Source: a virus
Virus record (IMG/VR): IMGVR_UViG_3300029381_000501
Reading direction: 5' to 3' (one strand)
DNA: 64,000 nucleotides
The position numbers were made by a program, and so were the translations under genes. Under the pieces are notes generated by a model. It did not search any database. It saw only the letters and a program-made list of their open reading frames with translations, and was not told the origin of the DNA. Positions 18,314 through 44,692 of this stretch are shown here, piece by piece; the first letter of the stretch is position 1; every line of letters begins with the position of its first letter.

Positions 18314-18521
18314 TGTAGAAGGATTTAAAACAAAAACTTTATTTAATACGGCATCAGAGTTGTTTATTAATAAAGTAAGAAGATGTGGCGAAGATTACGA
18401 CCATAGAGGTGCGTGCTCCAATACCGAACGTAAAGTACATATACGAAATCTCGCAAGAGAGGCGGCAGAAGAAGCTAAGATTTTTATTGAAGAAGTTTCA
18501 AAGGAAGGAGGTGAGCAATGA
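18297..18521 (+). CDS. Hypothetical protein
   Basis: ORF track 18270-18521; ATG 18297 overlaps the previous stop. Confidence 0.3.
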   Translation: MGVKINVEGFKTKTLFNTASELFINKVRRCGEDYDHRGACSNTERKVHIRNLAREAAEEAKIFIEEVSKEGGEQ

Positions 18522-25101: not shown

Positions 25102-25104
25102 AAG

Positions 25105-25545: not shown

Positions 25546-25548
25546 ACG

Positions 25549-25971: not shown

Positions 25972-26426
25972 ACTTTGCCCTCCTTCTCCTTTTCCAGTTC
26001 CTTCATAATCTCGGCAAAAGCCCTAGCAAGGTCCTCTTTGTTCTCCAGAAGAATGCTTACCGTTTTCTCCTGCTTCCGTATCTCTGCCTTCTGCCAGCTC
26101 TTCTCTCTTACGCTTACAAATTCACAGAACACGCAATAGCCTGCCCATATCATAGAGAAGACAGGGAAGGGGAGAACCGTACAGGCTATCAGGTCTATAC
26201 AGACCGTCACCATGAAGGGAGAGAAGTATTTCCTCGCCTTGTCGCAAGTCTTCTTGAATCCTGTACTTGTCGTAGCCAGTCCGTTCTCCTTCGCTTTCTT
26301 GATGCCAAAGAACAGGTCCACGCCCATAGAAATGATAAGAGCACCCATGCAGATGGCAATAACCAATGCCGATCTGTACAGGTGCTCTTGCAAAAATGTA
26401 TGAATAATCTCTGTCATATATACCAT
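25968..26426 (-). CDS. Holin-like membrane protein (3 TM, charged C-terminus)
   Basis: Three hydrophobic helices then a K/E-rich tail; directly upstream of and overlapping the endolysin. Confidence 0.45.
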   Translation of the reverse strand: MVYMTEIIHTFLQEHLYRSALVIAICMGALIISMGVDLFFGIKKAKENGLATTSTGFKKTCDKARKYFSPFMVTVCIDLIACTVLPFPVFSMIWAGYCVFCEFVSVREKSWQKAEIRKQEKTVSILLENKEDLARAFAEIMKELEKEKEGKV

Positions 26427-26444
26427 TAATATTGATTAATGGCG

Positions 26445-26486
26445 CAAAGATAAGGGGTTTTCAGATAGCTTTTTCCGTGTTTCCGT
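26445..26486 (-). promoter_or_regulatory. Late-type promoter of the lysis operon: tandem ACGGAAA-C-ACGGAAA element (26475-26486, minus-sense) with 22-nt spacer to TATCTTTG (-7, 26445-26452, minus-sense)
   Basis: Same element at the same spacing upstream of the portal and scaffold operons. Confidence 0.5.
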
Positions 26487-27512: not shown

Positions 27513-27544
27513 TTTGGACGTATTCTAGATTATTTGTACCTTTG
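27513..27544 (+). promoter_or_regulatory. Bacteroidetes-type promoter TTTG (27513-27516), 20 nt, TACCTTTG (27537-27544)
   Basis: Exact consensus and spacing ahead of the plus-strand two-gene insert. Confidence 0.5.
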
Positions 27545-28527: not shown

Positions 28528-31269
28528 TTATCTTATCTTGTCTTCCCTTCTGCTCTGGGTCTCTATGATGGACCCGGCAAAGGAATCGCTTGCCTTGAAG
28601 TTCTTGAAAGAATACTCCAGCTTGAAGTATTTCCACGGCTTACCGAAGAGGCTCTTCAGCGCAACCCAGTCCTTGCCGTTGTTGGAGCCATAGACTGTTA
28701 CACTTACCGTGCCGGCATCTGAATCGAAAAGATGCTTCAAGCCTCTCAATGATTTCAGAATTGTAGAGCCGCCCAGTTTCAAAGGTCGGGTAGTCATTAC
28801 GCAGTCATAGTCGTTGGCATCATCCTCTGCCAATGGAATGTTGGTAAGGGAGTAAACGGTACTATCATCAAACTGAATAAGGTTGTCTGGATAGTTGTTG
28901 GCTACCGTTCTACAGAAAATCTTGCTACTGGTATAGTTGTGGGAGATAGAGAAAATCTTATCCACCATATTATATACATAGTGATAGCTGGTCTTCTTGT
29001 TGAATATTCTCAGCAGCGAAGCCTTGTAGTCATAGGCTATCAGGCAGTTCTCCAAGAAAGTCTTGAAAGGCAGGAAGTCGCTTGGCAGTCCTCTGTTCTT
29101 TCCACCGCTCAACTGCCCCGATACGCAAATCGCCTCGCCGCCCGAGGTTGCCATCAATCCCTTTTCTGACGTGAAGTAAACCACCTTGTCGGTAGGGGTG
29201 ATGGAATCAGCATTGTTGCAAACCTCTCTGGATATAGGGTGTATGCTGGAGTAAAGTCCCTCTGCATTCACGCTCATGGCATAGATGCCTTCATCGGTAA
29301 AGACGAGCAGAGGATATTGACCGAACTGTCCCTGACTTACCGCCTCTGTATTAGCCACGATACCAAGAATCTTACCAGTACCCACGGTGTTATCGCCCGA
29401 TGCCTCAAATACAAACGGATTGTTCACTACGGAAGTGAAAATCTGGGAATCAAGATATTCTGGCTTATTGAGATTCTTGACAAGTTCGATTATTTCATCT
29501 TCGGTCTTGTTTTCAAACTCTGCATCCCCTTCAGCAGACGGAAGATTGGTGAACGAATAGGCGCCATTCAGCATTGGATGCACAACCAATGGGATTCTCA
29601 GGCATTTGCCACCAGAATAAAGAATGATTTCGGTAGCGTTTGGGTCTGGATAATAAATCCATCCACGCAGGAACGACTTATTCACAGAAGCGATATTCAT
29701 CGCCCAAGTATCAGAAGTATTTGTTACGATATGGGTGTACATATAGTAATGCTCATCATCCGTCAAGTCTCTTCCTGTAAAATTCGAGAAACCTTCAAAT
29801 GGATAGCGCAACAATCCGATAGCTTGAAGTCTGCCGTTATAGGTGTATAGTCTTTCTGCAGTAGCCTTTGCCCATCCGTAATAATCATCAACATTCAGTT
29901 GGGTTTGTGTCGTAAGATTCTCAACAACTCCTTTCCCAATGAACATTCTATCTCCGTCCTTTATTCCGTTAACCGAGTAATGCCAGTTTCCATCCATAAC
30001 CTTATCCGATGCCTTTACTGAAAACAGTTTGTAGAACTGTGATTTTGTCAGCAGTTCATCTATGATTTCCTGGTCCGTTTTATATTCCGGCTGAATTTCA
30101 CTATGTACAGTGATGGTCTGGGAAGCCATCGCTTGCTTGTCGTAGTTAAACGGAAGCTCTCTATACTTGTCGTAGCCGAAATTAGCGGAAGGTTTCATAT
30201 AGGTGTCGTTTGGAGAAACTAATTTCCAACCGCTATCTAAACGGAATGGCAGGACCTGATCAGAGGCAAAGACTACAATTTCTTTGATGATGTCCCTCCA
30301 ATCATTGCTTATCGGTTCAAACTTGAATTTCAGTTCGCTATACTCGATAAAGTAAAAGATACTTTCTTTTCCTGCCATTTGCCTAAGATCCATATAGGTG
30401 TTATGGGTACGGTCGAAAGTCGCAGAGCTGAAATGGCAATTTCTGTTAATGGTAGGATAGCAGATATATGGGGTGGTAATCTTGGTATAAGAGCCATCGA
30501 AGAGTCTGAATGCGCACCTGATAAAGAAAGGGAACGCAAACATATTCTTGCTTTTTACCCAGCTGATAGCTTGGGCAACATGCCCTTGAACTGTTTCCTG
30601 AAAGCCTTTTTCGTGAGAGCCGTCTGTAGATACTTTGATGGAGAAATGGTGATACGTACCTTGTTGGAATATTCCGCTAGGTTCATCGCCAGCGGCATGC
30701 AGGAATTTACCATTCGCATCATAATAACATTTCCAGGCATCAGGTCCATCTACATCATTTGAAATATTCATCAGAGTTCTTTCGCTCTCTTCTGGTATGT
30801 AGTTGTTGGTTGGCTTCTCGAAGGTGAAGTTGCATTTCAGGTTAGGGATATTCATTCCCAAATCCTTGTAGGTATCTGATTTATAAAGGATGTATCTCAG
30901 TCCATTATCTGTAGCCAGTACCAGCGTATTCCCCACCGCTTGTGCATCCTTCACTTCTCCGTCACCCTCAAATGTACCTATCGCCGTTTTGAGGTCACTC
31001 TTCTTGTAGCATCTGATGGTATATTTGTTTGTTCCGGGGTCTCTGTCATAGGTAATGATATTCTCGAAGTCTGCCATTTTATGGACAAACAAAATCGTGC
31101 CGCTCACAGTGCCGAAAGGCTCCATCTTCTGAATCGGGACCATTTCACCATTCCTATATATGATGTTTTGAGAATAGGCAAGCTCGCTATCCTCACTCAG
31201 TAAGTCACTCGGTACGTTCGTCATACCCTTGCTGAAACTCAAAGTCTTTCTATCCAAGTTTCTCTCCAT
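28528..31269 (-). CDS. Large virion structural protein (portal or tail component candidate)
   Basis: 913 aa; immediately downstream of TerL in the same operon; no motif recognisable by eye. Confidence 0.3.
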   Translation of the reverse strand: MERNLDRKTLSFSKGMTNVPSDLLSEDSELAYSQNIIYRNGEMVPIQKMEPFGTVSGTILFVHKMADFENIITYDRDPGTNKYTIRCYKKSDLKTAIGTFEGDGEVKDAQAVGNTLVLATDNGLRYILYKSDTYKDLGMNIPNLKCNFTFEKPTNNYIPEESERTLMNISNDVDGPDAWKCYYDANGKFLHAAGDEPSGIFQQGTYHHFSIKVSTDGSHEKGFQETVQGHVAQAISWVKSKNMFAFPFFIRCAFRLFDGSYTKITTPYICYPTINRNCHFSSATFDRTHNTYMDLRQMAGKESIFYFIEYSELKFKFEPISNDWRDIIKEIVVFASDQVLPFRLDSGWKLVSPNDTYMKPSANFGYDKYRELPFNYDKQAMASQTITVHSEIQPEYKTDQEIIDELLTKSQFYKLFSVKASDKVMDGNWHYSVNGIKDGDRMFIGKGVVENLTTQTQLNVDDYYGWAKATAERLYTYNGRLQAIGLLRYPFEGFSNFTGRDLTDDEHYYMYTHIVTNTSDTWAMNIASVNKSFLRGWIYYPDPNATEIILYSGGKCLRIPLVVHPMLNGAYSFTNLPSAEGDAEFENKTEDEIIELVKNLNKPEYLDSQIFTSVVNNPFVFEASGDNTVGTGKILGIVANTEAVSQGQFGQYPLLVFTDEGIYAMSVNAEGLYSSIHPISREVCNNADSITPTDKVVYFTSEKGLMATSGGEAICVSGQLSGGKNRGLPSDFLPFKTFLENCLIAYDYKASLLRIFNKKTSYHYVYNMVDKIFSISHNYTSSKIFCRTVANNYPDNLIQFDDSTVYSLTNIPLAEDDANDYDCVMTTRPLKLGGSTILKSLRGLKHLFDSDAGTVSVTVYGSNNGKDWVALKSLFGKPWKYFKLEYSFKNFKASDSFAGSIIETQSRREDKIR

Positions 31270-31281
31270 AACTCAATATCT

Positions 31282-33414
31282 TTAAATTTTCGCAGCAGAA
31301 TGAACACCATCACCACCGCTGCTTGATCTTTCCTTTTGTTTCCACTTCGGCTTTTCCATATCGTTGGCACTTACCCACAAGCCGATGGCGGTACTCATCA
31401 GTACATCATCATGGTTTCCGCTGCCCACGATATTGCCAAGACTTCCATCATCGTGCCGCTCGTAGATTCTCAGCTCATGATACATTTCCTTATCAGGCTC
31501 ATCCCAGAGCATATCATCCACGAACTGCTCCAGATTGTCAATCACCCAACCCTTCGTCAGCTTATTGGTCTGGAATCCATACTTGGCAAGCACATCATCG
31601 CTCACGTCCTCAGGACTTGTGGTGCGCTGATACAGATTGTCGTAATAGTCGGCTATCTCGTTCAAGATACTTCCGAAGTGGTCGCCTTCCGTATTGTTGT
31701 TCTTCTCTCTATCTGCCGTGTTGCTCTCGATTACCAGCAAGGCATCATCATAGTAATGAGCCAATGCTGCCGCCATCCACGCCAGCTTGTCGTGCCTTAC
31801 GTGTCCTCGCCATCTTGCCACCACCTTCGGTTTACCCTTGATGGTAGGCAACATCCCGAATCTGTCTATCACCGTCATCACGGTATAGTCGGAAGTCGAG
31901 GATTTACCGCCAATATCCACGCTCACCAAGTATCTATTCTCTACTTTCAGACAGTTAGGTACTGCCCAGATTTTCAAGTCTCCATCACCATCTGTTCGGA
32001 TGCTGATCTTCGACTTTTCGATGGAAGATTCATTCTTGTTACCGTCAATGATGATGTCGGCGGTATAGATTGGCTCACGCTTATACTTCTTCTGCAAATC
32101 ATCAATAGAGTAGGGGTTGAAGACCAGATTACCAGAGTTTCGGAAGGCATCTTCCTCATCCACTGGTGCCTCGGTAGCACAGAAGGAATGGGTGGTAAAC
32201 TTATTGCGGAAGTTTCTGTACCACTCGATAGCTTGGAAGCAGGCTCCCTTCTCCCACATTCTCCAGAAGAACTTGCCAGTTTCTCGGTAGCCCTTCGGAT
32301 TGGTACTCTTATCCTTGTTTTCCAAAAGCCATTTGGCAAAGGCTCGTTCACTCTTCACTTCCTCCATATCGTGCTCGATGAAGAAGCAAGGGATGAATAG
32401 GAAGGAATAGGCATCGTTGTTCTTTGGGTCCATAGCCAACTGGCATTTCTCGTAGAAGAAGCCAGAGTTACCCTTGCCGGTACTCTCGAATACCTCCAAG
32501 TTATCCTCCTGATTTCTGATACCACCCGAGATAGAGGAAATCACACCCTCAGGATCATGCTCTGGGGTCTTCTTCCAATAGGCAACCTCAGAATAGTGGG
32601 CACAGTGGAAGTTGCTACCACGCACGGAATCGAAGTTCTCGAAGGATGCCACGGTCAGCGTACTTCTTCTGATTGCTCTTATTCCGTCTGTCACCTGAAA
32701 ATCATCAGGCGAGTTCTCGTAAGGAGAAAATTGAAGCTTGGCTCCTGGGCATCCGATTGTCCATCCCGGCTGGTTCTCCAAAGCCTTTCTGTACATCGCC
32801 TTGATTTTCTTCGCCGTATTCTTCTGCTGGGCTAGTACGATGGCGTTCCATCCGTCCTTGCGGAAATCCTGTAGCCACTTGATGTAAAGCTGTGTGAGTG
32901 TAGAACCGCCCCACTGTCTGGCTTTCAGAATCACTACTCGGATAGCCCTTTTGCTGGTTCTTAAATCCTCAAAAATCTTCAAGAGCTTGCGCTGGGGATA
33001 GTTCAGCTTGAAAGGTATCATGTCACCAGTTACCTTATCCTCAATCTTGTCGGTAGCAAACAGGGCAAACTCGGGGTCTTCCCTGAATCTCACCTTCATA
33101 ATCTCGAAGGTCAGCACCATCTTCAACTGCTTGGTGTAGTAACTCTTCTCGTTATACTCCTTGCCCCATACTTGGATGATGTACTTCTTCATGCTGCCCA
33201 ACCGTTTCAGACCTATATATAATAAGGTACGCATACATTCTTTGGGAACCCACATCTTCGGAATCATGAAGTCGGGCAGTTCGAGCAGCTCCCTGTGCTC
33301 GAAATCATAGCAGCCTTCACCCGTCCAAGGGTTGTAGGTTCCGTAAATCTCATCGTATCGCCGCTTGTTTTCGGCTACGAGTTCGTCAATATCTACTTCT
33401 CTAACTAATGCCAT
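31282..33414 (-). CDS. terL: Terminase large subunit
   Basis: Walker A-like 'KARQWGGSTL'; Walker B-like 'FHCAHYSEV'; C-terminal RNase H-fold nuclease acids 'VSVDIGGKSS', 'LLVIESN', 'GNHDDVLMS'. Confidence 0.7.
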   Translation of the reverse strand: MALVREVDIDELVAENKRRYDEIYGTYNPWTGEGCYDFEHRELLELPDFMIPKMWVPKECMRTLLYIGLKRLGSMKKYIIQVWGKEYNEKSYYTKQLKMVLTFEIMKVRFREDPEFALFATDKIEDKVTGDMIPFKLNYPQRKLLKIFEDLRTSKRAIRVVILKARQWGGSTLTQLYIKWLQDFRKDGWNAIVLAQQKNTAKKIKAMYRKALENQPGWTIGCPGAKLQFSPYENSPDDFQVTDGIRAIRRSTLTVASFENFDSVRGSNFHCAHYSEVAYWKKTPEHDPEGVISSISGGIRNQEDNLEVFESTGKGNSGFFYEKCQLAMDPKNNDAYSFLFIPCFFIEHDMEEVKSERAFAKWLLENKDKSTNPKGYRETGKFFWRMWEKGACFQAIEWYRNFRNKFTTHSFCATEAPVDEEDAFRNSGNLVFNPYSIDDLQKKYKREPIYTADIIIDGNKNESSIEKSKISIRTDGDGDLKIWAVPNCLKVENRYLVSVDIGGKSSTSDYTVMTVIDRFGMLPTIKGKPKVVARWRGHVRHDKLAWMAAALAHYYDDALLVIESNTADREKNNNTEGDHFGSILNEIADYYDNLYQRTTSPEDVSDDVLAKYGFQTNKLTKGWVIDNLEQFVDDMLWDEPDKEMYHELRIYERHDDGSLGNIVGSGNHDDVLMSTAIGLWVSANDMEKPKWKQKERSSSGGDGVHSAAKI

Positions 33415-33820
33415 CGCCCAATTCCTTTATTTCCTCAAAATCTGCATCCTGTATCTGTGGCACCTGAGTCACGTCCAATCCATTGTTGTCTGTCTTGGTT
33501 CTTCCCAGTGCCGCCAACTGCTTGAAGTCTTCATCCAATCCATGGGTCACGCTCACCTCGCTCTGCTTTGGTATCATGTGCTTGGTCAGGTTAGCATAGA
33601 TGGTAACGTATGTTTTCGGGTCGTATTCTGCCAACTGGTTCATACAATCCTCAAACTTATCCTGATGTCGGGCTAGGAAGTCACGGATAAATTCTTTCTG
33701 TGCGCTCTTGCTCACTGGCAGGATCTTCTTTGCCTTCTCACGTTTCTCCTGCATGATTTCTCTTACCGACTTAATATCATCAAACTCTCCCATAAGCTTC
33801 TCCTTCTCTTTTTTATCCAA
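33401..33820 (-). CDS. Terminase small subunit candidate
   Basis: 139-aa charged protein overlapping the TerL start. Confidence 0.3.
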   Translation of the reverse strand: MDKKEKEKLMGEFDDIKSVREIMQEKREKAKKILPVSKSAQKEFIRDFLARHQDKFEDCMNQLAEYDPKTYVTIYANLTKHMIPKQSEVSVTHGLDEDFKQLAALGRTKTDNNGLDVTQVPQIQDADFEEIKELGDGIS

Positions 33821-34421
33821 ATGGCTTTAGTGTATGAACCAGCATTCCTGCTTTGCTGGCACTCGCTGCATCCAGTATCTCCAGTTCTTCATCGTTCATT
33901 TCCTCCTGCTTCGAGACGGTAAGCGGATCCTTGCTGGTAAGCGTAAGCAGGAAATATTCATAGAGGGCACCAGCCACGATGTAGCTGTGGATATGTTTCA
34001 CAAGCTCGTCATACCGTGTGTCGTCCCAGTAGTCGGGCATGTTCAGCCAGATTTCCTTCTCATCCCATTCCTTCAGGGCATTGTCTCTTACCACTCCCTG
34101 TGGTTTCATCACGTAGGCAGAGAGGACTCCTTCTGCCTTTTTCAGATACTTGTCGAACCAGCGGTAGAAGAGCGGTCTTTCCCTGTCGTTCTCGCTGGTA
34201 GGGATGATGTCTTCCTGATTGGTCTGGTTGCCTCGTCTTGCCCTGCCTACCATGTTTGTAGCTGCATCAATGTCATACCAGAGTTGGTTGGCATAGATGA
34301 AAATGTGCTTGCTGTAGTACTTGTGTGCCGGGCGAGGAGGCTTCGGAAGGAAAGGATTCGGCTCGGGCTTCCATCCTCTCTCACGGATAAAATGTGTTGG
34401 GTGTAATGCGTTGAACTCCAT
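33813..34421 (-). CDS. Hypothetical protein
   Basis: 202-aa ORF in the packaging operon. Confidence 0.35.
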   Translation of the reverse strand: MEFNALHPTHFIRERGWKPEPNPFLPKPPRPAHKYYSKHIFIYANQLWYDIDAATNMVGRARRGNQTNQEDIIPTSENDRERPLFYRWFDKYLKKAEGVLSAYVMKPQGVVRDNALKEWDEKEIWLNMPDYWDDTRYDELVKHIHSYIVAGALYEYFLLTLTSKDPLTVSKQEEMNDEELEILDAASASKAGMLVHTLKPFG

Positions 34422-34422
34422 T

Positions 34423-35214
34423 CTATACCTCCTTTGCTACGGTTACTTCCACCTCTCTCTTCAGGTTGTCGCTGTGTCGGGAGAAGAGGGTAACGGTTGC
34501 CACACCGGTATTCCTTGGCTTCAGGGCGAAGGTATAAGGGTCTGGGCTGCGCTGAATCTCAACGATGCTAGGGTCGCTGCTTCTCGCCTCAATATCATCA
34601 ATGGCGCCATCATCAATGGAGTAGGAGATATTCACGTCCTCTTCCTCCAGGGCAATCGTGATAGCTCCATCACCACAGCTTCCATCCACCTTGGCAGTAA
34701 GATGCTGGGTATAAGGAACGGTTGGAACTACTGGACCGCTCAGTACGAAACATCTGCGGATGCTCTGTTCATCTATACTGAGTGAAGCCTGATAAGGCTC
34801 TGCTTGTTTCAAGTTGGTAGTCTTCAACCACCACTGGAAAATCACGTAGTCTTCCACATACTTTGATACCAGCCGGGCAAGTGTATCGGTCAAGGTTCCG
34901 TTGCATCTTCTGGAGGCATTGATGATAAACTCTACCACATCATCCGTCTTGGAGTCGTAGTAGATAATGTTGTCACCGATGGTCTGCGCATTCGGTACCA
35001 GATACTCGGCAAGAAGTGTCTTCACAATCTCCAGTGCCGTATCAAAATCATGGGTGAGCGTTGCTTCGTGAACCTCATCATCACCAGCAGCCTCATTGAA
35101 TCCCAACTTGATAGCCTTCTCGTCAACCGCACTATCCACCTTTGCCTTCAGGTAGGTGGCTCTCTTTACGGCTCCAATCACTACCGACTTTACGATTTGA
35201 AATTTTATAATCAT
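34423..35214 (-). CDS. Hypothetical virion protein with C-terminal Ig-like (Big_2-like) region
   Basis: 'PRNTGVATVTLFSRHSDNLKREVEVTVA' resembles a bacterial Ig-like domain. Confidence 0.3.
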   Translation of the reverse strand: MIIKFQIVKSVVIGAVKRATYLKAKVDSAVDEKAIKLGFNEAAGDDEVHEATLTHDFDTALEIVKTLLAEYLVPNAQTIGDNIIYYDSKTDDVVEFIINASRRCNGTLTDTLARLVSKYVEDYVIFQWWLKTTNLKQAEPYQASLSIDEQSIRRCFVLSGPVVPTVPYTQHLTAKVDGSCGDGAITIALEEEDVNISYSIDDGAIDDIEARSSDPSIVEIQRSPDPYTFALKPRNTGVATVTLFSRHSDNLKREVEVTVAKEV

Positions 35215-35226
35215 AGCTTTATCTTT

Positions 35227-35721
35227 TTAGTTCAAAATTACTTCTCCTGTCATATCTGTCAGGTTTCCGCTTACAGATGCCGGCGCATCCTTCTGGAAGA
35301 TCAGCTTCAATGCAGAGTTCACATGATTCGCCATATCGTCTGCATACTTCCTTGCTGATTCGGCATAGGTCATGGATAGCACAGAATAGGCTACGTAATC
35401 TACCGCATAGCTCTTGAAGAGACTACAGAATGCGTTTGCCTTGCCATCGCTCACTCTGTTCTGCTGATAGGTGAATACCACATCATCGGTGTTGTCCGTG
35501 TAGCCGGCTATCAGTGGAGAGAAGTTGCCCACGAATGTTTCCGCCGCATCCTTCACATACTGCTTCAAGATGTCTTCCTCGGTCGAGGATAGGGTAACGC
35601 CGGTAAAGAGGATATTCCCCTGCTTGTCGGAAAGTCTTTTTCCGATGATGGAGAAATGCTTCTTCACCTTGCTCTTGATGTCGGCATACCCTATTGTTAT
35701 TGTCTGTTCTGTTACTGCCAT
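35227..35721 (-). CDS. Hypothetical protein
   Basis: 164-aa ORF. Confidence 0.35.
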   Translation of the reverse strand: MAVTEQTITIGYADIKSKVKKHFSIIGKRLSDKQGNILFTGVTLSSTEEDILKQYVKDAAETFVGNFSPLIAGYTDNTDDVVFTYQQNRVSDGKANAFCSLFKSYAVDYVAYSVLSMTYAESARKYADDMANHVNSALKLIFQKDAPASVSGNLTDMTGEVILN

Positions 35722-35724
35722 AAC

Positions 35725-37749
35725 TTATGCTGTTTGATAATACTGATTATTCATGTTCATAGCCTGTGCCACTGCGTTCTGGTCTGCACCCTGTACGATG
35801 CCGTTTTCTACCTGTCCACCTCCCTGCTGCTGAGCCATCGCTTGTTGCTGCTGGTACATCTGTTCCAACTGTGCCTGCTGTTTCTGCACGCTGGCAAGAA
35901 GCTTGTCGGCAAATGGTTTGTTCACGTTCTGCAAGTACTGAATCAAGTTGATTGCACGCATCTGCAGTAACTCCTTCAAGTCATCATTCTGTAAGGTGTT
36001 GTAGGCAGCAGATGCCGCTGCATTCTTGATGCTTATCTTGAAGTGAATGTCTCTTGCTGATAGTCTGTCGTAACTGTAGGTGTTCAGACCGTCCTTGTTG
36101 AAAATCTTTCTTCCGTCCTCGTAGAACTGCTGGATAACTGAGCACTTTTTCATTGCCAGCTTCTCCGTAAAGATCTCCATGTCGGATAGGATAGTGTAGA
36201 GCGAAGTGGTTGCGTTCTGACTCTCCTGAGCATATCTTGCAGCCGACGTACCAGCCGAAGGAGTCTTGCCCTGCAAGGCACCGCTTACGTTGGTTACCTC
36301 TCTGATAAGGTTCAGTTCTATCTGTAAGAGTTCGTTGGTTCCGATATTTACCGCATTCGAAGTAATAATCTCTGGCTTCACGTTTGGCATTGTTCTCTTT
36401 GGTGTATAGAATATCCATCCATCGTATTCTATTGCCTCTTCCATGAACTGCTCTGGTGTCCTTCCACCCAGTACGGTTGTAGGAATCATCTTGAATCCCT
36501 TAAAGCTGCTTCTGATACTCATGTCATTCATCACAATCAGGCGGTTGATGTAGCGCTGCTGATCTATCACGTTGGTCATGAACGGATGAATCTCTCCGTT
36601 GATGAAAGGATAAAGCTTCATGGTGTATGGGTGGCTCTTGAAATCGTAAGGAGATTCACCACGGCAAAGCACCGTACCGTCAGGAGCCATGAAGGTGTAG
36701 TACCAGTATTTATCTGAAAGATCTTCCGATGTAATATAGGCACGGTCTTCTTCCGGCACACCGTATTCGTCATACTGCTTCTTTCGCTTCTCGTTCTCCA
36801 GAATCAGCTTGTTTATCATTGCCGTATCTTCCAAATCCACACGGAACCAAGCATTGTTCATGTTCTTGGCAATAGGGTCGAAGCACTGCAGTCTCGGTTT
36901 GGTTTCCGTGGTCCATACCTCAATCACTCTTACGTAGTGTCTTCCCTTGTTGGTATAATCGAAGCTGAGATTTTCCAAAGCCTTCTCTTCGTTAAACTCG
37001 TAGCCATAACTGCTATCATCTACATCATGAATGTCAAAGATACAGTTCAAGTCATTAACCGTCAATCCGTATTCCCTGCGGGCAAACTTCTGATACAAGT
37101 CTTCCTTGCTTACGTCATGCAGACAGCCTATCAGACAAACGTCATTGTGTCTTGGGTCACTTCCGCATTCGAAGAACATGTGGTCAGGTTCCATTGCGTC
37201 CGTCCAAGCATCAGGCATTTCCAGTTCTCGGTCTTCCCAGCTCTCCCTCACAAACATCTGACCGCCCTGCAGGTAGTCCTTGATGAGGTGATTCAGCAAA
37301 TCCTGCATACCGGTGGTCTGCCAGTTGCATTGCATCGTAGCACTCATCATGTCGCTCAGTTGTCGGGAGTCATTATCTCTTGCAAAGCATACTGGTTCCG
37401 TGCCCTGCTTGGCATAGAGTCCTGCGATGGATTCCAAGATACTGATCATGATGTTGTTGCTCATAGGGGTCTGGTTGCGCCGCTCCATATAGGTGCGCTC
37501 CGTCATTTCCTCCCAGTAGCCATGATGATACACCCTGATGGTGTCGCTCCATTGGTCTCCGTTGCAGTATCTCATCGTTCTTGCTCGGGTCTCCCTCACG
37601 CCGCTCAGATTGTTCCAGGCATTCTTGCATCGGGTCAGCAGTTCCCAGTCCTTTCCGTGCTCCTGCCGCTTCTTTCGAGCTTTCACGGAATCGTATCTGT
37701 TGCGCTGAGGCATCACCTTGCTAAGTGTTAATAATTTCGCCTTAACCAT
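35725..37749 (-). CDS. Portal protein candidate
   Basis: 674 aa; first gene of the minus-strand packaging operon, divergent from scaffold/MCP; Q-rich helical C-terminus. Confidence 0.4.
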   Translation of the reverse strand: MVKAKLLTLSKVMPQRNRYDSVKARKKRQEHGKDWELLTRCKNAWNNLSGVRETRARTMRYCNGDQWSDTIRVYHHGYWEEMTERTYMERRNQTPMSNNIMISILESIAGLYAKQGTEPVCFARDNDSRQLSDMMSATMQCNWQTTGMQDLLNHLIKDYLQGGQMFVRESWEDRELEMPDAWTDAMEPDHMFFECGSDPRHNDVCLIGCLHDVSKEDLYQKFARREYGLTVNDLNCIFDIHDVDDSSYGYEFNEEKALENLSFDYTNKGRHYVRVIEVWTTETKPRLQCFDPIAKNMNNAWFRVDLEDTAMINKLILENEKRKKQYDEYGVPEEDRAYITSEDLSDKYWYYTFMAPDGTVLCRGESPYDFKSHPYTMKLYPFINGEIHPFMTNVIDQQRYINRLIVMNDMSIRSSFKGFKMIPTTVLGGRTPEQFMEEAIEYDGWIFYTPKRTMPNVKPEIITSNAVNIGTNELLQIELNLIREVTNVSGALQGKTPSAGTSAARYAQESQNATTSLYTILSDMEIFTEKLAMKKCSVIQQFYEDGRKIFNKDGLNTYSYDRLSARDIHFKISIKNAAASAAYNTLQNDDLKELLQMRAINLIQYLQNVNKPFADKLLASVQKQQAQLEQMYQQQQAMAQQQGGGQVENGIVQGADQNAVAQAMNMNNQYYQTA

Positions 37750-37779: not shown

Positions 37780-37822
37780 CAAAAATAGTCTTAAATCCCT
37801 TTTTCTTTGCCGTGTTTCCGTG
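37780..37822 (-). promoter_or_regulatory. Late-type promoter of the portal/terminase operon: CACGGAAACACGG (rc of 37810-37822) with 22-nt spacer to TATTTTTG (-7, rc of 37780-37787)
   Basis: Same element and spacing as at the lysis and scaffold operons. Confidence 0.5.
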
Positions 37823-37836
37823 TGTTTGCCTATTGT

Positions 37837-37879
37837 CACGGAAACACGGAAATATAATTGCATTTTCTTTGCATCTTTG
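37837..37879 (+). promoter_or_regulatory. Late-type promoter of the scaffold/capsid operon: CACGGAAACACGGAAA (37837-37852) with 22-nt spacer to CATCTTTG (37872-37879); the two divergent elements form a perfect 13-bp inverted repeat separated by 14 bp
   Basis: Read directly in the sequence. Confidence 0.5.
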
Positions 37880-37905: not shown

Positions 37906-38703
37906 ATGACAAAGGAAGAATTAGAACAGATGAATGCAGGTGGAGAATCTGAACAGCAGGTTTCTTCACCCGAACAGGCTGCGGAAGAGACTCCCCCGGT
38001 AGAGGAGCGCCCTAACCGCAAGGCTTTCTCCGACCGATTCAAGAAGCGTCATGCTGACATTGATTTCGAGGACAAGGAAGCTCGTTATGCGGCTATGAAT
38101 GATGATGCTGATTTGCTCGGACGATACGAGGAAAGCGGTAAGGCGTTGTCTAAGGTGTTCGATAAACACAAGTGGCTTGCTGCTCTGGCGATGGACATGG
38201 AAAAGAATCCGGATGATAATCCGTTTGATGCGATGGCTCGCTTGGGTATTGACGTGAAGACCTTGCTTGATGATCCCGAAGGCGGCAAGAAACTTGCTGA
38301 GATTCTCGCCAAGCACAACGAGGACGTGGCTGAACAGAATGAAGCAACCGAAAGGGTTACGGAAAACATGCGCAAGTCTATCGAGCGCTTGGTTAAGCTC
38401 TACCCAGACGATGCACACGATATGTGGAAGCAGATTTACGAGATTCACGACAAGGTGGAGAGCGGTGACATCCCAGATGATGTTTGGAAGATGCTCCATA
38501 ATGCCAACAACTACGATTCTGACATTTCCTCTGCCCGAGACGAGGCGGCTATGCAGGCAAGAAACGAGAAGATTCAGAATAAGGTCCGCTCTTCTGCAAC
38601 AGAGGGTATTCCTCCTTCACTTTCTAGTTCGGGTGCCGGAAACGAGCCAGCTAAGAAGAAAACTAAGAAGAGAGCATCCAGCTTCTTTGATGATATTGGT
38701 TAA
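37906..38703 (+). CDS. Scaffolding protein candidate
   Basis: 265 aa, highly acidic/helical, directly upstream of the capsid gene. Confidence 0.45.
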   Translation: MTKEELEQMNAGGESEQQVSSPEQAAEETPPVEERPNRKAFSDRFKKRHADIDFEDKEARYAAMNDDADLLGRYEESGKALSKVFDKHKWLAALAMDMEKNPDDNPFDAMARLGIDVKTLLDDPEGGKKLAEILAKHNEDVAEQNEATERVTENMRKSIERLVKLYPDDAHDMWKQIYEIHDKVESGDIPDDVWKMLHNANNYDSDISSARDEAAMQARNEKIQNKVRSSATEGIPPSLSSSGAGNEPAKKKTKKRASSFFDDIG

Positions 38704-38737
38704 CACAAGATTATTAATCCATAAATATAAGTATAAA

Positions 38738-40423
38738 ATGAAGAAAGTAATTAATTATTTTTCTAATCGTCAGTTCATCTTTAAGATGATTCTGATGCTT
38801 CTTGCTGTTGTTACAGGTGGTGGCGCAATGGCTGTTGGTGATGATGTTGAACCAGACTTGAACGAGCCAGGTTCTAAGCCTGCAACAACCGAAGAGACAG
38901 CTGCCAATGAGCAGGTAGATAAGGATAAGAACGACTTGCTTGCCCCTGGCGGTAAAACTGCTGGTCAGTCTTTGACTGGTACGCAGGCTTCTGCTACACA
39001 GATGGACCGAGGCGGTCTTGAAGAGGAAGACTGGGACACGGGTGAAACCAAGTTCCGCCCATATCATACACCTCTCCTTTCTATTGTTAAGAAGTTTACA
39101 ACTACAGTTCCTTGTACTGGCTACAAGAAGAAGCACGCTCGTTATGGTGGCGAGACCTTGGACGGTGAGGTTACACAGCCAATTACTGCCGGTGCTTCCA
39201 TCAAGCTTACCAAGACCAACTTCTCAGGCTCTTTGAAGCCATTCTACGAGGGTTCTACTGCTATCGTTCCTACCGTAGCTGGTTATAAGCGTGGCTCTAC
39301 TACAGTTCGTGAGGGTCGTTTGGTTCTCTTTGTTACCAGCGCCAATAAGTCAGGTACTGAGGTTACATTGCAGGCTATCAATGGTAAGGCTAATGAGGAG
39401 AATGCCGATTGCGAGTTCTTGGAAAACATGACTTGCCCGGATATTCCTGTTGGTACAGTTATTTTGGCAGCTTCTACAGCGCTCTCTGAGTCTCAGATGA
39501 AGGTTCCTGCTGAGAACTATCAGCCACGTTCTGCCGATGTTTATCTCCAGAAGCGAGCGTTCTCTATCGTCTTCACCGAGGACTTCGAGACCATGAAGAA
39601 GAAGATTCCTCATACCGTGAAGGATATGAAGGAAGATGCACTCAACAAGTACAAGATGCGTGCTGAGCGTTCTTACTGGATGGGTACCAAGGCTCGTATT
39701 CATTCTACCACCAATGATGGTGCTGATGAGTACACCTACTTCGCAGATGGTATCTTGAATCAGCTGACCAACCAGTATGGTATCGGTGAGGTTTACAAGT
39801 ACGAGGATCTGACAGCTATCAGCATGTTGATGTTTACTGACTTCTCTGAGTCTGACCACATCTACATGTTCTGTGGCAAGAATGCCATCAAGCGCCTGAT
39901 GAACATTGAAATCCCTAAGGGTCGCACCGAAGTTCTTTCTACCCACAAGGAAATTGACATTACCTTCTCTCGCTACGTTGACAACTACGGTACTATTGAT
40001 TTCGTTTGGGATCAGACTCTTGACATGATGCACATGGAAGACTGCATGGTTGGTATGGACTTGAAGGGTGCTCGCCACTACGTGAAGGAGAAGGGCAAGG
40101 ATAAGACCAATGATATGAGCAAGGATGGCTACGACCCACGTGAGGCTAAGCGATACATGCACATTGAGGCAGATTGTATTGCTCTTCGTGGCTACAACTC
40201 TATCCTGGTTGGTCCAGAAGCATTCATCACCAACCTTGGTGTTACTGGCATCGTGAACAGCATTATATCTCTGAAGACTCTCCCAGATACTGCTTCCAAG
40301 GGCATGAAGGTGGCTTTGACAGAGGATTACACCAAGGATGAGACAACCTACGAGAAGGGCAAGGTTTACGAGTACGATGGTACTAAGTGGAACTTGTATG
40401 CCGGCATGGACGTTGCTGCATAA
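38738..40423 (+). CDS. Major capsid protein candidate
   Basis: 561 aa starting at ATG 38738 (the ORF track extends it upstream in frame across the scaffold gene); follows the scaffold; strong terminator-like hairpin downstream. Confidence 0.5.
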   Translation: MKKVINYFSNRQFIFKMILMLLAVVTGGGAMAVGDDVEPDLNEPGSKPATTEETAANEQVDKDKNDLLAPGGKTAGQSLTGTQASATQMDRGGLEEEDWDTGETKFRPYHTPLLSIVKKFTTTVPCTGYKKKHARYGGETLDGEVTQPITAGASIKLTKTNFSGSLKPFYEGSTAIVPTVAGYKRGSTTVREGRLVLFVTSANKSGTEVTLQAINGKANEENADCEFLENMTCPDIPVGTVILAASTALSESQMKVPAENYQPRSADVYLQKRAFSIVFTEDFETMKKKIPHTVKDMKEDALNKYKMRAERSYWMGTKARIHSTTNDGADEYTYFADGILNQLTNQYGIGEVYKYEDLTAISMLMFTDFSESDHIYMFCGKNAIKRLMNIEIPKGRTEVLSTHKEIDITFSRYVDNYGTIDFVWDQTLDMMHMEDCMVGMDLKGARHYVKEKGKDKTNDMSKDGYDPREAKRYMHIEADCIALRGYNSILVGPEAFITNLGVTGIVNSIISLKTLPDTASKGMKVALTEDYTKDETTYEKGKVYEYDGTKWNLYAGMDVAA

Positions 40424-40448
40424 GGCATCTTTTTCATCTTTAACATAT

Positions 40449-40492
40449 AAATCACGCAGAGGGGCAGAAGTTAATAGCCCTGTCCCTTTGTT
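40449..40492 (+). terminator. Hairpin AGGGGCAG...CTGTCCCT + TTGTTATT after the capsid gene
   Basis: GC stem then T-rich tract. Confidence 0.35.
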
Positions 40493-40508
40493 ATTAAAAT
40501 AGAAAATA

Positions 40509-40943
40509 ATGATTAAGACATATAGATATAACGAGCTGTGTAATAATGTAAGCCTTACGATTTCCGGTGCTGGCGGTAATTCTATGCGCTACAACTTTAC
40601 TCATGGCAACACTTACATGCGCAAATGCCCAGAGGTTACTCTTCGCAACAAATATGCGCAAGACCTTTTGGATAACCATGAATTGGTAAGGAGCGGAAAG
40701 GTTACTTGTATTCGTACAACTCTTGAAGAGGCGGATATTGTGCAGGAAGAGGCGCTTGTAAATGAGCATGCAAAGAAGCCTGCAAAGAAAGCTCAGAAGG
40801 AGGAGGTATCTGGCATTCGCACAGCCGAAGAGGTTATCAATTACGTAAATAGCCGTTTTGACAAGGATTGCAGAACCCTTGAAACTGCCATGAAGCATGC
40901 AGACAAGGCTGGTCTTGTTTTCCCTGATTACGGCAAGGAGTAA
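40509..40943 (+). CDS. Hypothetical virion protein
   Basis: 144-aa ORF. Confidence 0.35.
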   Translation: MIKTYRYNELCNNVSLTISGAGGNSMRYNFTHGNTYMRKCPEVTLRNKYAQDLLDNHELVRSGKVTCIRTTLEEADIVQEEALVNEHAKKPAKKAQKEEVSGIRTAEEVINYVNSRFDKDCRTLETAMKHADKAGLVFPDYGKE

Positions 40944-40961
40944 CATATATAATAAGGTGAA

Positions 40962-41618
40962 ATGAAGGTAGAAGACATCATAAAGGCAGTCCGTTGGTGC
41001 ATAGACGAGGAATCCAACAACTTCTCATCAATCACAGATGAGAAGGATGATTTGTATATGGACAACATCATCAAGGCAAAAATCAACGATGCCCTGCATT
41101 GGATTGCCGTTACCGCATCATCCTCTGCAGCATTGGCTGATTCCAAGAAGATAGGTACTTCTTCTGCCACCCTCCAAGTACAGGACTACGATACCCAGAG
41201 AAGCATCGGAGTAGTCACGATGGATGCCAATACCGAGGTAATCAATATCTCTCGCATTCGTGGCAATGGCTGGTTCAAGGCAGTAGTGCCTATAGAAGAT
41301 ACTCAAGATGAGGCTGTCATGATGTTTGATGATACGGCAAAGGGAACTATCGACCGACCACAGGCGGCTATTATGCGTGAGAATCCTCTGAAAATCCTCT
41401 TGCAGCCCAAGCCTACGGAAGCGGTCATTTCCTTTGTGGGTGTTCCGAAGAACGTAAGCACGTCCGATTCTACAGATGTAGCTATCCCGGACCGCTTGAA
41501 GAATGCCTTCATCTACTATCTCGCCTTTTTATTGCTTTCAGCCTACGATGATACCAAGGCTACGCAAATGTACACGATAGCCTTGCAGCAGCTAGGCGTT
41601 AGTCAAACATCAAAATAA
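40962..41618 (+). CDS. Hypothetical virion protein
   Basis: 218-aa ORF. Confidence 0.35.
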   Translation: MKVEDIIKAVRWCIDEESNNFSSITDEKDDLYMDNIIKAKINDALHWIAVTASSSAALADSKKIGTSSATLQVQDYDTQRSIGVVTMDANTEVINISRIRGNGWFKAVVPIEDTQDEAVMMFDDTAKGTIDRPQAAIMRENPLKILLQPKPTEAVISFVGVPKNVSTSDSTDVAIPDRLKNAFIYYLAFLLLSAYDDTKATQMYTIALQQLGVSQTSK

Positions 41619-41625
41619 TGAAATC

Positions 41626-41904
41626 ATGGAGTATGTATCTACGAATTATAGCGAAGAAGAACTGGCATGGGTCTCCCCGGAGATAACCTTGCAGCGTGAC
41701 ATCTACCTGATGATTACGCTCAAGCGCCCAGGAAAGCTGGTAATCAGACAGGATAGGGGCGATGGCAAGAAGCCTCGGGTTCCCATTCGTGCCCACAAGA
41801 ACACCAGCGAGTTCAAACTTCGCCTTCGGGTGATTCCCGAAACCAGAAAGATTCAGATATTCACTTCATCAGAACCAAAAGAAATCAAATATGCCTACAT
41901 TTAG
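41626..41904 (+). CDS. Hypothetical protein
   Basis: 92-aa ORF. Confidence 0.3.
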   Translation: MEYVSTNYSEEELAWVSPEITLQRDIYLMITLKRPGKLVIRQDRGDGKKPRVPIRAHKNTSEFKLRLRVIPETRKIQIFTSSEPKEIKYAYI

Positions 41905-42388
41905 AGATGATCCAAAAATGGGCGGCTTGATGCCATTAATTAAGACTGACGACATTAATGACCAAGCCGTCACCACAGATAAGATACGTGACGACTGCGT
42001 GAGTGGAAGAAAAATCCAAAAGGGAACTATAGAATTGTATCATCTGAGTGCTATGCTTGCTAGTATTCTGAAAGCTGCCATAGGGTTGCCTGAGGATTTG
42101 ATTAATCAAATGACTTATCTTTATAAGAAAATCAATGAAATACAGCCCATATCGGAAGATGATATTGACAAGATTACAGAAGGAAGTTATGTTCCCGAGG
42201 ATGAAGAAACGTCTCCTCCTCCAGCTTCTCTTAATGAAAAAGTTGAAGTACTTGAGAAGAAGGTCAAGACCAATGAAAATGACAACTCTTACACTCGTCT
42301 GAAATTGGATTCATTCATTGATTCTGATTTAACTGCAGAGCAGGTTAATGATTTGTTGGATAAGCAAAATGATAATATTAATATTTAA
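41891..42388 (+). CDS. Hypothetical protein
   Basis: 165-aa ORF. Confidence 0.3.
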   Translation: MPTFRDDPKMGGLMPLIKTDDINDQAVTTDKIRDDCVSGRKIQKGTIELYHLSAMLASILKAAIGLPEDLINQMTYLYKKINEIQPISEDDIDKITEGSYVPEDEETSPPPASLNEKVEVLEKKVKTNENDNSYTRLKLDSFIDSDLTAEQVNDLLDKQNDNINI

Positions 42389-42400
42389 TTTTTAAGTTTT

Positions 42401-43072
42401 ATGGCTGAGTATAATTATTTAAGTAAAACTGGTTTGACTGCACTTTGGAACAAGTGCAAGAGTGTGTTTGTTAAGGCTTCTGAAAAGGGCAAGGCTAATG
42501 GTGTTGCTACACTTGATGGCAATGGTAATGTACCTTTGACTCAGTTGGGCAACATTGATACCACCTTTGCGGAAGTAGTTACAGAACTCCCTTCAACTGG
42601 TATCAAGAAGCATATCTACATGATGAAGGCTGGCACCACTGGTGACAAGAACGTCTATGCAGAGTATGTCTATACTGGTGATATTGCTGGCACTTACGAT
42701 GCAACCAAGTGGGAGAAACTGGGCGAGGCTACTACAACGGTTGACTTGTCTGGCTACGTGAAGACCACAACGTTTACAACTGAACTTGGCAAGAAGGTTG
42801 ACAAGGTTAGTGGTAAGCAGCTTTCTACCAACGACTATACCACTGCCGAGAAGAACAAACTGGCTGGAATTGCAGAGAGAGCTAACAACTATGTTCACCC
42901 TACCAGTGCAGCTGGAGCCAAGGCTTCTGGTCTGTATAAGATCACAACAGATGCCAATGGTCACGTTACTGCTGCCACTGTTGTTGCTAAAGCAGACATT
43001 ACCGGTCTTGGTATTCCTGCAAGTTCTGACTTTGTTGAGATTACGGAGGAGTTCATCAACTCGCTGACTTAA
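42401..43072 (+). CDS. Tail fibre protein (short)
   Basis: N-terminal 'TGLTALWNKCK' anchor motif shared with the next gene; 'LSTNDYTTAEKNKLAGI' tail-fibre repeat motif. Confidence 0.5.
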   Translation: MAEYNYLSKTGLTALWNKCKSVFVKASEKGKANGVATLDGNGNVPLTQLGNIDTTFAEVVTELPSTGIKKHIYMMKAGTTGDKNVYAEYVYTGDIAGTYDATKWEKLGEATTTVDLSGYVKTTTFTTELGKKVDKVSGKQLSTNDYTTAEKNKLAGIAERANNYVHPTSAAGAKASGLYKITTDANGHVTAATVVAKADITGLGIPASSDFVEITEEFINSLT

Positions 43073-43087
43073 CGGTGTCTTTTCTAT

Positions 43088-43143
43088 GAACTTTAGTCCA
43101 AGCATAAACTCTGGGTGTAATATCCAGGTTTATGCACTAAAGT
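43088..43143. repeat. Long near-perfect hairpin/inverted repeat (AACTTTAGT..GCATAAAC..CTGG / CCAG..GTTTATGC..ACTAAAGTT) between the two tail-fibre genes
   Basis: More than 20 bp pair; no T-run follows. Confidence 0.6.
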
Positions 43144-43183
43144 TATAGTAGAGCCAAATTGTTTTACTTAAAAATTATATACA

Positions 43184-44692
43184 ATGAAGATATTAACTGA
43201 TACTGGTTTAATGGTGCTTTGGAACAAGATTAAGCAGCTTGTTCTGGGCAACCGTCCATATAACCCTTCCGAGTTTTCCGGCAAGGGCTATAAGGTGCTG
43301 GAGAAAAATATCCAGACCGTTGGTGGCGTTAAGAAGAACATCCTAACGGCAATTATGCTAAGTGAAGCCAATACCATCTATGAAATCAGGTATGACTTTG
43401 ACTTGAATGGGGAGACTATTGAGATGCAGGAGGGATGTACCTTGAAGTTTTGTGGGGGTAGCTTGAAGAATGGTACATTAAAAGGTAATAATTCGATTAT
43501 TGATTCTCGTTGTGTTCAAATATTTAATGAAGCTTTTGTGATAAACGGCTCTTGGAATGTTCATGAAGCATATCCGGAATGGTTTGGGGCTGTAGGGGAT
43601 GGAAATGTTGATGATACTAAGGCTATTCAAAAAACATTTGATACTTTTGATCTCATAAGATTATCTCGAAAAGAGTATAAAGTTGAAACGATAGATCAAA
43701 AAGGTGTAGTTCTTAATCTGCCAAAGAATAAACATCTTATAGGAATGGATATTGACCATAATGCAGAGAATACAATATACACTCTTCATTGCGAGAACCC
43801 TAATGCAAAAGTAATTCTTCAAATAAATAGTGGATGTATTGTTGAAAATATTACTTTGAGAGGTGTTTCACAAAAGGCATCATACAATACCTATAATGAT
43901 GCACTTCACGGTTTTTGTTGTATTAAAACAAATGGAGAATGCAATAGAATTACTTTAACAGAAGTTCAATGTTTATCTGGAGATGTGGGGTTTTTCCTTA
44001 TGGCCTATCTCACCAATATTGATCATTGTTATTCATTTTATAACAAAATAGGATTTGCAATAACAGGAAATATTTCAGAAGACGGAAGTCTAAAAGTAGA
44101 AAATACTACAATAAATATGAGAACTTGTTATTGTATATATTGTAATATGTGTGCCTTTTATATAAAGGGAATCATATATTCTAATTTTGAAAATCTTGCA
44201 GCAGATGGGTGTGGACATGAGTTAAAGGCTATCAATTCATGGGATGATGTTAAAGCTCCATACTATCTTGAATCTCTTAAAGCTGTAAACTTTCTTTCTA
44301 TAGGAGCTGAATCATCATTGAAAATGATTATGACATATAGCTGTATTAATATTGGACTCTATAATATTAATTTTACTTATGGCTTTCATTCAAACAAACA
44401 ACTTGGAGGAACCTATACTCCTGGACATTTATTTGAATTTAAGTTTAGCTATATTAGAATGGTTGACACTTATTTAAATATTGGCGGAGTTGACACTAAC
44501 AAAATAAAAACCTTACTAGAAAGCAATACTAATGCTCCTTTAATTTATATTGAAGATAATAAAACTTCTTATATCAAATATAGATTTTATGGATTGGTAG
44601 AAAGACTTAAAAGAGAAAATATAAAACTAGGAGGTGCTGTAAATACAAATAATGTTTATATAGAAGACTATATTGTTAGTGATAACACCTAA
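43184..44692 (+). CDS. Tail spike / tail fibre with pectate-lyase-like beta-helix
   Basis: N-terminal 'TGLMVLWNKIK' anchor motif; 'GAVGDGNVDDTKAIQKTFD' is typical of pectate-lyase-fold tailspikes; the gene becomes strongly AT-rich from ~43480. Confidence 0.5.
   Translation: MKILTDTGLMVLWNKIKQLVLGNRPYNPSEFSGKGYKVLEKNIQTVGGVKKNILTAIMLSEANTIYEIRYDFDLNGETIEMQEGCTLKFCGGSLKNGTLKGNNSIIDSRCVQIFNEAFVINGSWNVHEAYPEWFGAVGDGNVDDTKAIQKTFDTFDLIRLSRKEYKVETIDQKGVVLNLPKNKHLIGMDIDHNAENTIYTLHCENPNAKVILQINSGCIVENITLRGVSQKASYNTYNDALHGFCCIKTNGECNRITLTEVQCLSGDVGFFLMAYLTNIDHCYSFYNKIGFAITGNISEDGSLKVENTTINMRTCYCIYCNMCAFYIKGIIYSNFENLAADGCGHELKAINSWDDVKAPYYLESLKAVNFLSIGAESSLKMIMTYSCINIGLYNINFTYGFHSNKQLGGTYTPGHLFEFKFSYIRMVDTYLNIGGVDTNKIKTLLESNTNAPLIYIEDNKTSYIKYRFYGLVERLKRENIKLGGAVNTNNVYIEDYIVSDNT

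Follow-up and report, generated by a model that had tools for sequence, protein, structure and literature searches.

A 64,000-nt stretch of viral DNA (IMG/VR record IMGVR_UViG_3300029381_000501, hereafter the window) carries a short, oriented sequence ahead of its lysis, portal/terminase, and scaffold/capsid operons, which raises the question of whether these late operons share a dedicated type of promoter and, if so, what recognizes it. A preliminary description of the window had placed the same element upstream of the three operons, at a fixed distance from a -7 box and in the position of the usual -33 sequence, and had suggested a phage-specific late-promoter class served by a dedicated activator or an alternative sigma factor. 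Judged from the comparisons reported here, the element, a 15-base motif, very probably serves as the binding site for a late-gene transcription factor that the phage encodes, and the arrangement as a whole is likely to represent activator-dependent late promoters of a temperate phage of the Segatella (Prevotella) copri complex.

Contigs identical to the window run left of position 1 into bacterial genes encoding FtsW, a GldH lipoprotein, PSP1, DNA polymerase III delta', and MTHFR (a flank that in L359:1-9000 also includes an MFS transporter), and close relatives of the portal gene sit in assemblies of Segatella copri, Candidatus Segatella albertsiae, and Candidatus Segatella violae. Thus, the window covers the greater part of a Segatella (Prevotella) copri-complex prophage of roughly 75 kb, and the left end of the prophage is near the window start, since bacterial genes lie directly to the left. 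More than 150 relatives of the phage are present in IMG/VR; megablast of the 35-41 kb region found no close relative among deposited phage genomes. No integrase was recognized among the scanned ORFs (ORF 2301-3683 had no Pfam match), no tRNA genes were found in the window, and no relatives were found of ORF 242-631. The early region (window 1-24700) is mosaic relative to the relatives: its KilA-N gene, for example, is missing from relatives with the same late region and was found in a different contig set. This region also encodes a cI-like HTH_3 protein and a 230-aa protein (18518-19210, +) with tandem IGSSG(D/Y)SA(K/Q) repeats and a weak collagen-like match. Two standard-type promoters, at 4120-4156(+) and 8969-9005(+), have AAnGCTTGGATATTT in common at the -33 position, and one of them adjoins the cI-like gene; the pair may represent a second, early promoter or operator class.

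Pattern searches of the 64-kb window recovered the exact 15-mer ACGGAAACACGGAAA at two sites, ahead of the lysis and scaffold/capsid operons, and a one-mismatch copy, ACGGAAACACGGCAA, ahead of the portal/terminase operon (Table 1). The recurrence claimed in the preliminary description was therefore borne out, although two of its copies had been placed a few bases off and ACGGAAA had been read in both units of the portal copy, the promoter-proximal unit of which is ACGGCAA. At up to three mismatches, seven matches to ACGGAAACACGGAAA were found vs 1.4 expected, a count reached in 0 of 100 shuffles; the remaining four of the seven were three-mismatch noise, and searches at two mismatches or with relaxed box patterns yielded no extra copies of the element in the window. 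The tandem ACGGAAA-C-ACGGAAA structure emphasized earlier is real here but peculiar to this lineage rather than a conserved principle, and ACGGAAA alone occurs 23 times in the window. The gap between the 15-mer and the -7 box is exactly 19 nt at all three copies, and the distance from the CACGG core to the box is constant too, at the 22 nt first reported. The two divergent copies form a perfect 13-bp inverted repeat (CCGTGTTTCCGTG at 37810-37822 and CACGGAAACACGG at 37837-37849), also as first described; the lysis-operon element directly follows the stop codon of ORF 26487-26954. Similarity among the three promoters is limited to the 15-mer, at 93-100% identity, and the box; in the 19-nt spacers, identity is 16-32%. 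When the 13 nt at this register were compared all-against-all for the 118 [TC]AnnTTTG boxes in the window, only the trio of late promoters matched at ≥12 of 13 positions.

A -7 TAnnTTTG and -33 TTTG consensus has been confirmed genome-wide in Bacteroides thetaiotaomicron, and the -33 box is not universal among Bacteroidota promoters (PMC7366714). The TAnnTTTG box of the Bacteroidota primary-sigma promoter was found in the lysis (TATCTTTG), portal (TATTTTTG), and scaffold (cATCTTTG) promoters, the last with one deviating position that is itself conserved in relatives, and again in a fourth late promoter described below (TATATTTG). Near -33, the late promoters read GAAA or GCAA rather than TTTG or TTG; in contrast, standard promoters of the window, at 3978(-), 4149(+), 8998(+), 19600(+), and 27537(+), have TT(T)G at a distance of exactly 20 nt before the box, a place taken by the end of the element in the late promoters. 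A missing -33 sequence is no proof of activator dependence, because the -33 box is not universal in this phylum. A scan of the region for sigma-70 type promoters and terminators found nothing, as expected for a Bacteroidota host.

Table 1. Promoter elements, operons, and genes discussed in the text (window coordinates unless a contig is named).
Feature	Position	Strand	Remark
cI-like HTH_3 gene	8541..8912	-	
KilA-N gene	19631..20509		
Zinc-ribbon ORF, 71 aa	22278..22493		weak, sub-threshold Pfam matches only
Lysis operon	24790..26426	-	holin-like protein, amidase, 146-aa membrane protein, 103-aa HTH_17 protein
HTH_17 protein, 103 aa	24790..25101	-	Pfam
Amidase	25549..25971	-	phrog_822; adjoins holin-like membrane protein
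-7 box TATCTTTG, lysis-operon promoter	26445..26452	-	from sequence
Late-promoter element, lysis operon, ACGGAAACACGGAAA	26472..26486	-	single arm without inverted partner
Standard host-type promoter of p141: TTTG, N20, TACCTTTG	27513..27544	+	from sequence; consensus in PMC7366714
p141, candidate late-gene transcription factor, 141 aa	27570..27995	+	family without Pfam model
Portal-to-terminase-to-913-aa-protein operon	28528..37749	-	leftward 37.8-kb promoter
Terminase match, 710-aa protein	31282..33414	-	
p202, late protein	33813..34421		
Portal	35725..37749	-	phrog_156
-7 box TATTTTTG, portal/terminase promoter	37780..37787	-	30 nt upstream of portal ATG at 37749
Late-promoter element, portal/terminase operon, ACGGAAACACGGCAA	37807..37821	-	left palindrome arm; one mismatch
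Late-promoter element, scaffold/capsid operon, ACGGAAACACGGAAA	37838..37852	+	right palindrome arm; exact match
-7 box-like CATCTTTG, scaffold/capsid promoter	37872..37879	+	26 nt upstream of ATG at 37906
Scaffold, capsid, tail-fibre operon	37906..44692	+	rightward promoter
Scaffold-like gene	37906..38703	+	followed by capsid-sized protein, tail-fibre genes
Giant polyvalent protein gene, >3900 aa	52260..63998	-	truncated by window end; downstream of fourth promoter
Fourth promoter GGAAACACGGCAA-N19-TATATTTG	L423 3308..3347		also in six other window-lineage contigs

The genes behind these promoters were identified by phrog and domain matches, and the holin/lysis, portal/terminase, and scaffold assignments made earlier hold; the holin-like protein corresponds to phrog_20732. 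Upstream of the lysis operon, ORFs 26806-27369(-), encoding a 187-aa membrane protein, and 26487-26954(-), encoding a 155-aa protein with a weak DUF7841 match, overlap by 149 nt. Both frames of the overlap are conserved in relatives, in some of which the first ORF is split across two frames, and the 26487-27369(-) region could represent overlapping genes or a frameshift.

The -7 boxes and their 19-nt distance from the element are retained in more than 150 relatives. In the portal/scaffold intergenic region, compared across 80 relatives (58 different sequences), the two -7 boxes were conserved (CAT(C/T)TTTGC was kept at the scaffold box in 58 of 58 distinct sequences, and the 8-nt portal box TATTTTTG was identical in every relative listed) and an inverted repeat was always present, while the sequence of that repeat depended on the lineage. 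Whereas the palindrome arm of the window lineage is CACGGAAACACGGAAA, those of other lineages include GATGGAAACACGGAAA, GGTTGGAGCACGGCAAAA, TTTGGAACACCGCAAAA, AATCGTGGTATCGGTAAAA, and ATCGTGCTATGGGTAAAA, with a TATGTATGGGAAAA-like arm in a further relative from the genome collection and a GGAAAArTCGGAAA palindrome at the portal gene of a further phage; examples of the lineage-specific element are GGAAACACGG, TGGAACACGG, TGGAAYACCG, and CGTGGTATCGG. Element classes were designated A (ACGGAAACACGG; 15-mer ACGGAAACACGGAAA), B (ATGGAAACACGG), C (TTGGAACACGGC; 15-mer GTTGGAACACGGCAA), D (TTGGAAYACCGC), and F (TCGTGGTATCGG; 15-mer TCGTGGTATCGGCAA). All are built alike: the distal half varies, and after it comes (C/G)(G/C)(G/A)nAA, often continuing AA(G/C). 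The preliminary description had named absence of the element from the late promoters of related phages as an outcome that would count against it; all homologous promoters carry an element at the same register.

Within a genome, the same element is found at the portal, scaffold, holin, and fourth promoters, where these were recovered, and it switches between lineages, while the orthologous boxes and downstream sequence stay constant as one class gives way to another. At the lysis promoter of the 80 relatives, the single arm is the palindrome sequence of that genome, with the core ending 22 nt before the box, and in the CGTGGTATCGG lineage the lysis promoter matches the other late promoters too. 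In more distant phages, looking without bias for 13-mers that recur at this register picked out only late promoters, in five independent loci (L202, L363, L364, L368, and L486) and again in L487, each genome having its own variant, among them GTAAACACGG, GTGAACACGG, and GAAAACACGG. Exact-pattern scans of viral contigs with the arms of two divergent lineages gave mostly chance matches; beyond these, each related contig contributed just its two palindrome arms. In 86 of 86 loci, covering every element class, 84 or 85 nt separate the divergent -7 boxes, with the central 14-17 nt between the arms free to vary; this fixed distance may mean that two bound factors or polymerases have to be positioned in a set way relative to each other. 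Since one sequence occurs at up to four promoters, in one register and orientation, and is replaced between lineages, the element looks like the site of a trans-acting factor, and this pattern is the signature of a lineage-specific factor site and not of a hairpin; arm pairing is not what is conserved, because the holin and fourth sites are single arms.

The three promoters of the class that had been described were confirmed, but a fourth late promoter with the same geometry lies outside the window, ∼6.7 kb beyond its right end. It reads GGAAACACGGCAA-N19-TATATTTGCCCTCG and is followed by genes encoding proteins of 266, 356, and 455 aa and then by the polyvalent protein gene. The orientation of the element relative to the gene is the same as at the three window promoters, and internal dyad symmetry is absent from this site, as it is from the holin site. 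Almost all contigs of classes A, C, D, and F have TATATTTGCCCTCG at this promoter, and a single one of class C has TATATTTGCCCTAG; the element there co-varies with lineage, including the very different CGTGGTATCGG lineage, and the box and downstream sequence are essentially unchanged. The giant polyvalent protein contains LPD38, LPD3, ResIII helicase, methyltransferase, and weak ParB-like domains by Pfam, and its gene also lies behind a late promoter in the distant relatives L368, L486, and L487. It is probably a late, virion-associated product, because its gene is downstream of the fourth late promoter. Such proteins have been proposed to be packaged and delivered together with the DNA, and late control shared with the virion genes would fit this idea. 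The N-terminal part of the protein is ≤76% identical even in contigs with a 99% identical portal. Just upstream of the fourth promoter is an ∼850-nt non-coding stretch (L423:2500-3300) with G+C-rich runs and simple repeats, which could be a packaging or attachment region.

In the mechanism proposed here, a late promoter would consist of a host primary-sigma -7 box, TAnnTTTG, and an oriented, phage-specific element of ∼15 bp that spans roughly -50 to -30, in place of the usual -33 TTTG. A phage DNA-binding protein, made earlier from a standard promoter, would bind the element and recruit or stabilize the host RNA polymerase, and four operons (lysis, portal/terminase, scaffold/capsid/tail, and polyvalent-protein) would be switched on together. 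The palindrome at 37810-37849 would be two sites placed back to back for two divergent promoters, and the factor would be the 141-aa protein p141, one site being bound by a monomer through two tandem repeats. Activity of the boxes as promoters, a positive rather than negative action of the factor, and late transcription of the operons are all inferred. Of the two kinds of recognition suggested in the preliminary description, whose late-promoter class is supported by sameness within genomes and change between lineages, host polymerase with a phage activator over the -33 region is favored over a sigma factor, because the -7 box is the kind used by the host primary sigma factor and nothing sigma-like turned up among ∼58 ORFs of the window and 10 just past its right end.

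The element might instead be an operator for a phage repressor, a dimer of which, bound across the palindrome, would block the -33 region and so hold the late operons silent in a lysogen or at an early stage of infection. The perfect symmetry of the portal and scaffold sites, the invariant distance between their -7 boxes, and the overlap of the element with the -33 region would all suit an operator, as would a temperate phage that is flanked by bacterial genes and carries a cI-like HTH_3 gene. However, the single arms of the holin and fourth promoters, held in constant orientation and register, would be needless for a dimeric operator, and the lack of a -33 TT(T)G at all four promoters fits a need for help rather than blocking; lysogeny, moreover, is normally kept by repression of early promoters only. 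Repression is thus considered unlikely. The strict spacing to the downstream box and the strict orientation would also be expected if the element were the -35-type sequence of a phage or host alternative sigma factor, whose lineage-specific region 4 would explain the co-variation equally well, and GGAAAC may resemble ECF-type -35 motifs. Yet scans of ∼58 ORFs in the window and 10 beyond its right end found neither Sigma70 r2/r4 nor another kind of sigma domain, the downstream box is the host primary-sigma TAnnTTTG and is unchanged when the upstream element switches, the conserved stretch of 13-15 nt or more exceeds a -35 hexamer, and the 19-nt spacer, so poorly conserved between promoters, includes no second conserved -10-like motif. 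An alternative sigma factor is accordingly rated as quite improbable.

The evidence weighs more heavily against explanations that involve no DNA-binding protein at these sites. The 61-nt palindrome region can form a stem of 13 bp (-15.5 kcal/mol, z = -7.8), and its arms change jointly between lineages, which would be the behavior of a DNA or RNA hairpin (a cruciform, terminator, or processing site) with arms that co-vary for pairing; but the same lineage sequence stands as a partnerless single arm at two other promoters per genome, and the arms are sometimes imperfectly complementary and yet near the class consensus (e.g., GGAGC vs GGAAC). Moreover, both arms are upstream of the divergent -7 boxes and so would not be transcribed. 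A hairpin is therefore a very remote prospect. As for the idea that the copies match by chance or were carried along when promoters duplicated, and are themselves functionless, the sequence is short and A-rich, and its ACGGAAA unit is common in the window; the shuffling result speaks against chance, though, the similarity between promoters stops at the edges of the 15-mer, and the keeping of register together with co-varying sequence over many lineages contradicts it, leaving this explanation a negligible probability. The reading preferred here remains that of a site for a phage-encoded activator.

Candidates for this activator were compared by a class test of 28 genes, which a gene passes if its proteins are always more alike within an element class than between classes; the test covers the relatives' loci from the window-equivalent of ∼23.4 kb onward. 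Most genes fail because the genomes are mosaic: this is so for the portal (≥86% within classes, ≤96% between), the capsid (≥51% and ≤99%), HTH_17 (≥74% and ≤92%), and HTH_26, encoded outside the window (≥33% and ≤100%), and the holin, scaffold, and DUF7841 genes also mix element classes. p141 passes, with a lowest identity within class of 86% (mean 99%; up to 100%) and a highest identity between classes of 74% (mean 62%), the widest margin among the 28 genes. The rhomboid-like membrane protein whose gene overlaps that of p141 (≥76% within, ≤67% between), the late protein p202 (≥94% and ≤89%), and the amidase (≥89% and ≤78%, with only two classes covered) also pass, and p146 is marginal (≥85% and ≤84%); part of the p141 signal is perhaps linkage, because the rhomboid-like gene, p202, and the amidase separate cleanly as well. 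The divergence of p141 does not scale with that of the element, as classes A and B differ by 1-2 bases and their p141 proteins are ∼74% identical, and a p141 homolog of 43% identity accompanies the element GTAAACACGG. Other proteins were set aside as the factor: the KilA-N protein, which is absent from relatives sharing the late region and element; the HTH_17 protein as specificity factor, with up to 92% identity between classes and down to 74% within them; and the HTH_26 protein, which is 100% identical between classes. The DUF7841 protein (26487-26954) is borderline, at up to 93% between classes and down to 83% within.

p141, the best candidate for the factor, is a member of a protein family that forms 825 clusters at 50% identity in public data. 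It had no Pfam match, its only PHROG match was an annotation without function, and no Pfam domains were found in ten distant family members. The AlphaFold2 model (pLDDT 89.4) consists of two tandem repeats, marked by PAPRYYV and PAPEFF motifs, which bear a weak resemblance to helix-turn-helix folds; neither a Foldseek search of the model against the PDB nor a profile search of PDB sequences found anything significant. A monomer with two such predicted repeats on an asymmetric 15-bp site would fit the single-arm sites. In distant phages, the p141 homolog adjoins late promoters, often lying divergently between the polyvalent-protein operon and another late operon. The identification of p141 as the factor is tentative, if plausible on this evidence. 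It is possible, though somewhat more doubtful, that the whole p141 family are new late-gene activators for the Bacteroidota primary-sigma polymerase, acting as monomers on a ∼15-bp site that replaces the -33 sequence and re-targeted to at least eight site sequences.

The layout has several counterparts among known phages. The middle promoters of T4 keep a host -10-type element and have the -35 sequence replaced, at a fixed distance, by an oriented, asymmetric MotA box, which is read by a small phage protein made earlier, together with host sigma-70 and AsiA. An oriented box in place of the -35 sequence at fixed distance was likewise found at the four promoters and in all lineages seen here, an analogy that extends to layout only: the host here has a Bacteroidota-type sigma, which uses a -7 TAnnTTTG box, the element is longer (∼15 nt) and has many lineage-specific versions, late rather than middle genes are controlled, and no MotA or AsiA domain was found by Pfam in the ∼68 ORFs scanned. 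At the C- and Mor-dependent late and middle promoters of Mu, an activator is bound over the -35-type region and works with host polymerase, a similar working layout; no Mor/C-family protein (Pfam Mor) was found in the scanned ORFs, and unlike in Mu there is no dyad-symmetric dimer site at each promoter, the holin and fourth sites being single arms. The Ogr/Delta-dependent late promoters of P2/P4 are a parallel in function to what is proposed here, with four late operons of a temperate phage co-activated by one small activator and the host primary-sigma polymerase. Ogr is a zinc-finger protein, and its sites are TGT-N12-ACA dyads centered near -55, whereas the site described here is asymmetric and abuts the -33 position; no Ogr-type protein was found in the scanned ORFs, the 71-aa zinc-ribbon ORF (Table 1) giving only weak, sub-threshold Pfam matches. 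Relative to alternative or ECF sigma promoters, the late promoters differ in having a primary-sigma box downstream and no non-primary -10 motif, and in the lack of a sigma domain in the scanned ORFs. With the canonical Bacteroidota primary-sigma promoter they share the -7 box, and the 19-nt gap places the end of the element at -33 (PMC7366714); in these promoters, however, (C/G)(G/C)(G/A)nAA, preceded by the lineage-specific distal half, stands in place of the -33 TT(T)G.

Literature searches found no description of late-gene control in gut Bacteroidota phages, nor of this element. The locus provides a promoter of defined build, present at four targets in each genome, together with a natural specificity-swap series and one candidate protein. 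If p141 is confirmed as the factor, its pairs with the element could be usable as orthogonal expression switches in Segatella and Bacteroides and could help with the annotation of late operons in related metagenomic phages, of which there are thousands. If the reading of the whole p141 family is true, ready-made orthogonal activator/promoter pairs would be at hand for gut Bacteroidota, and the giant polyvalent proteins would be under late control and hence among the probable virion cargo.
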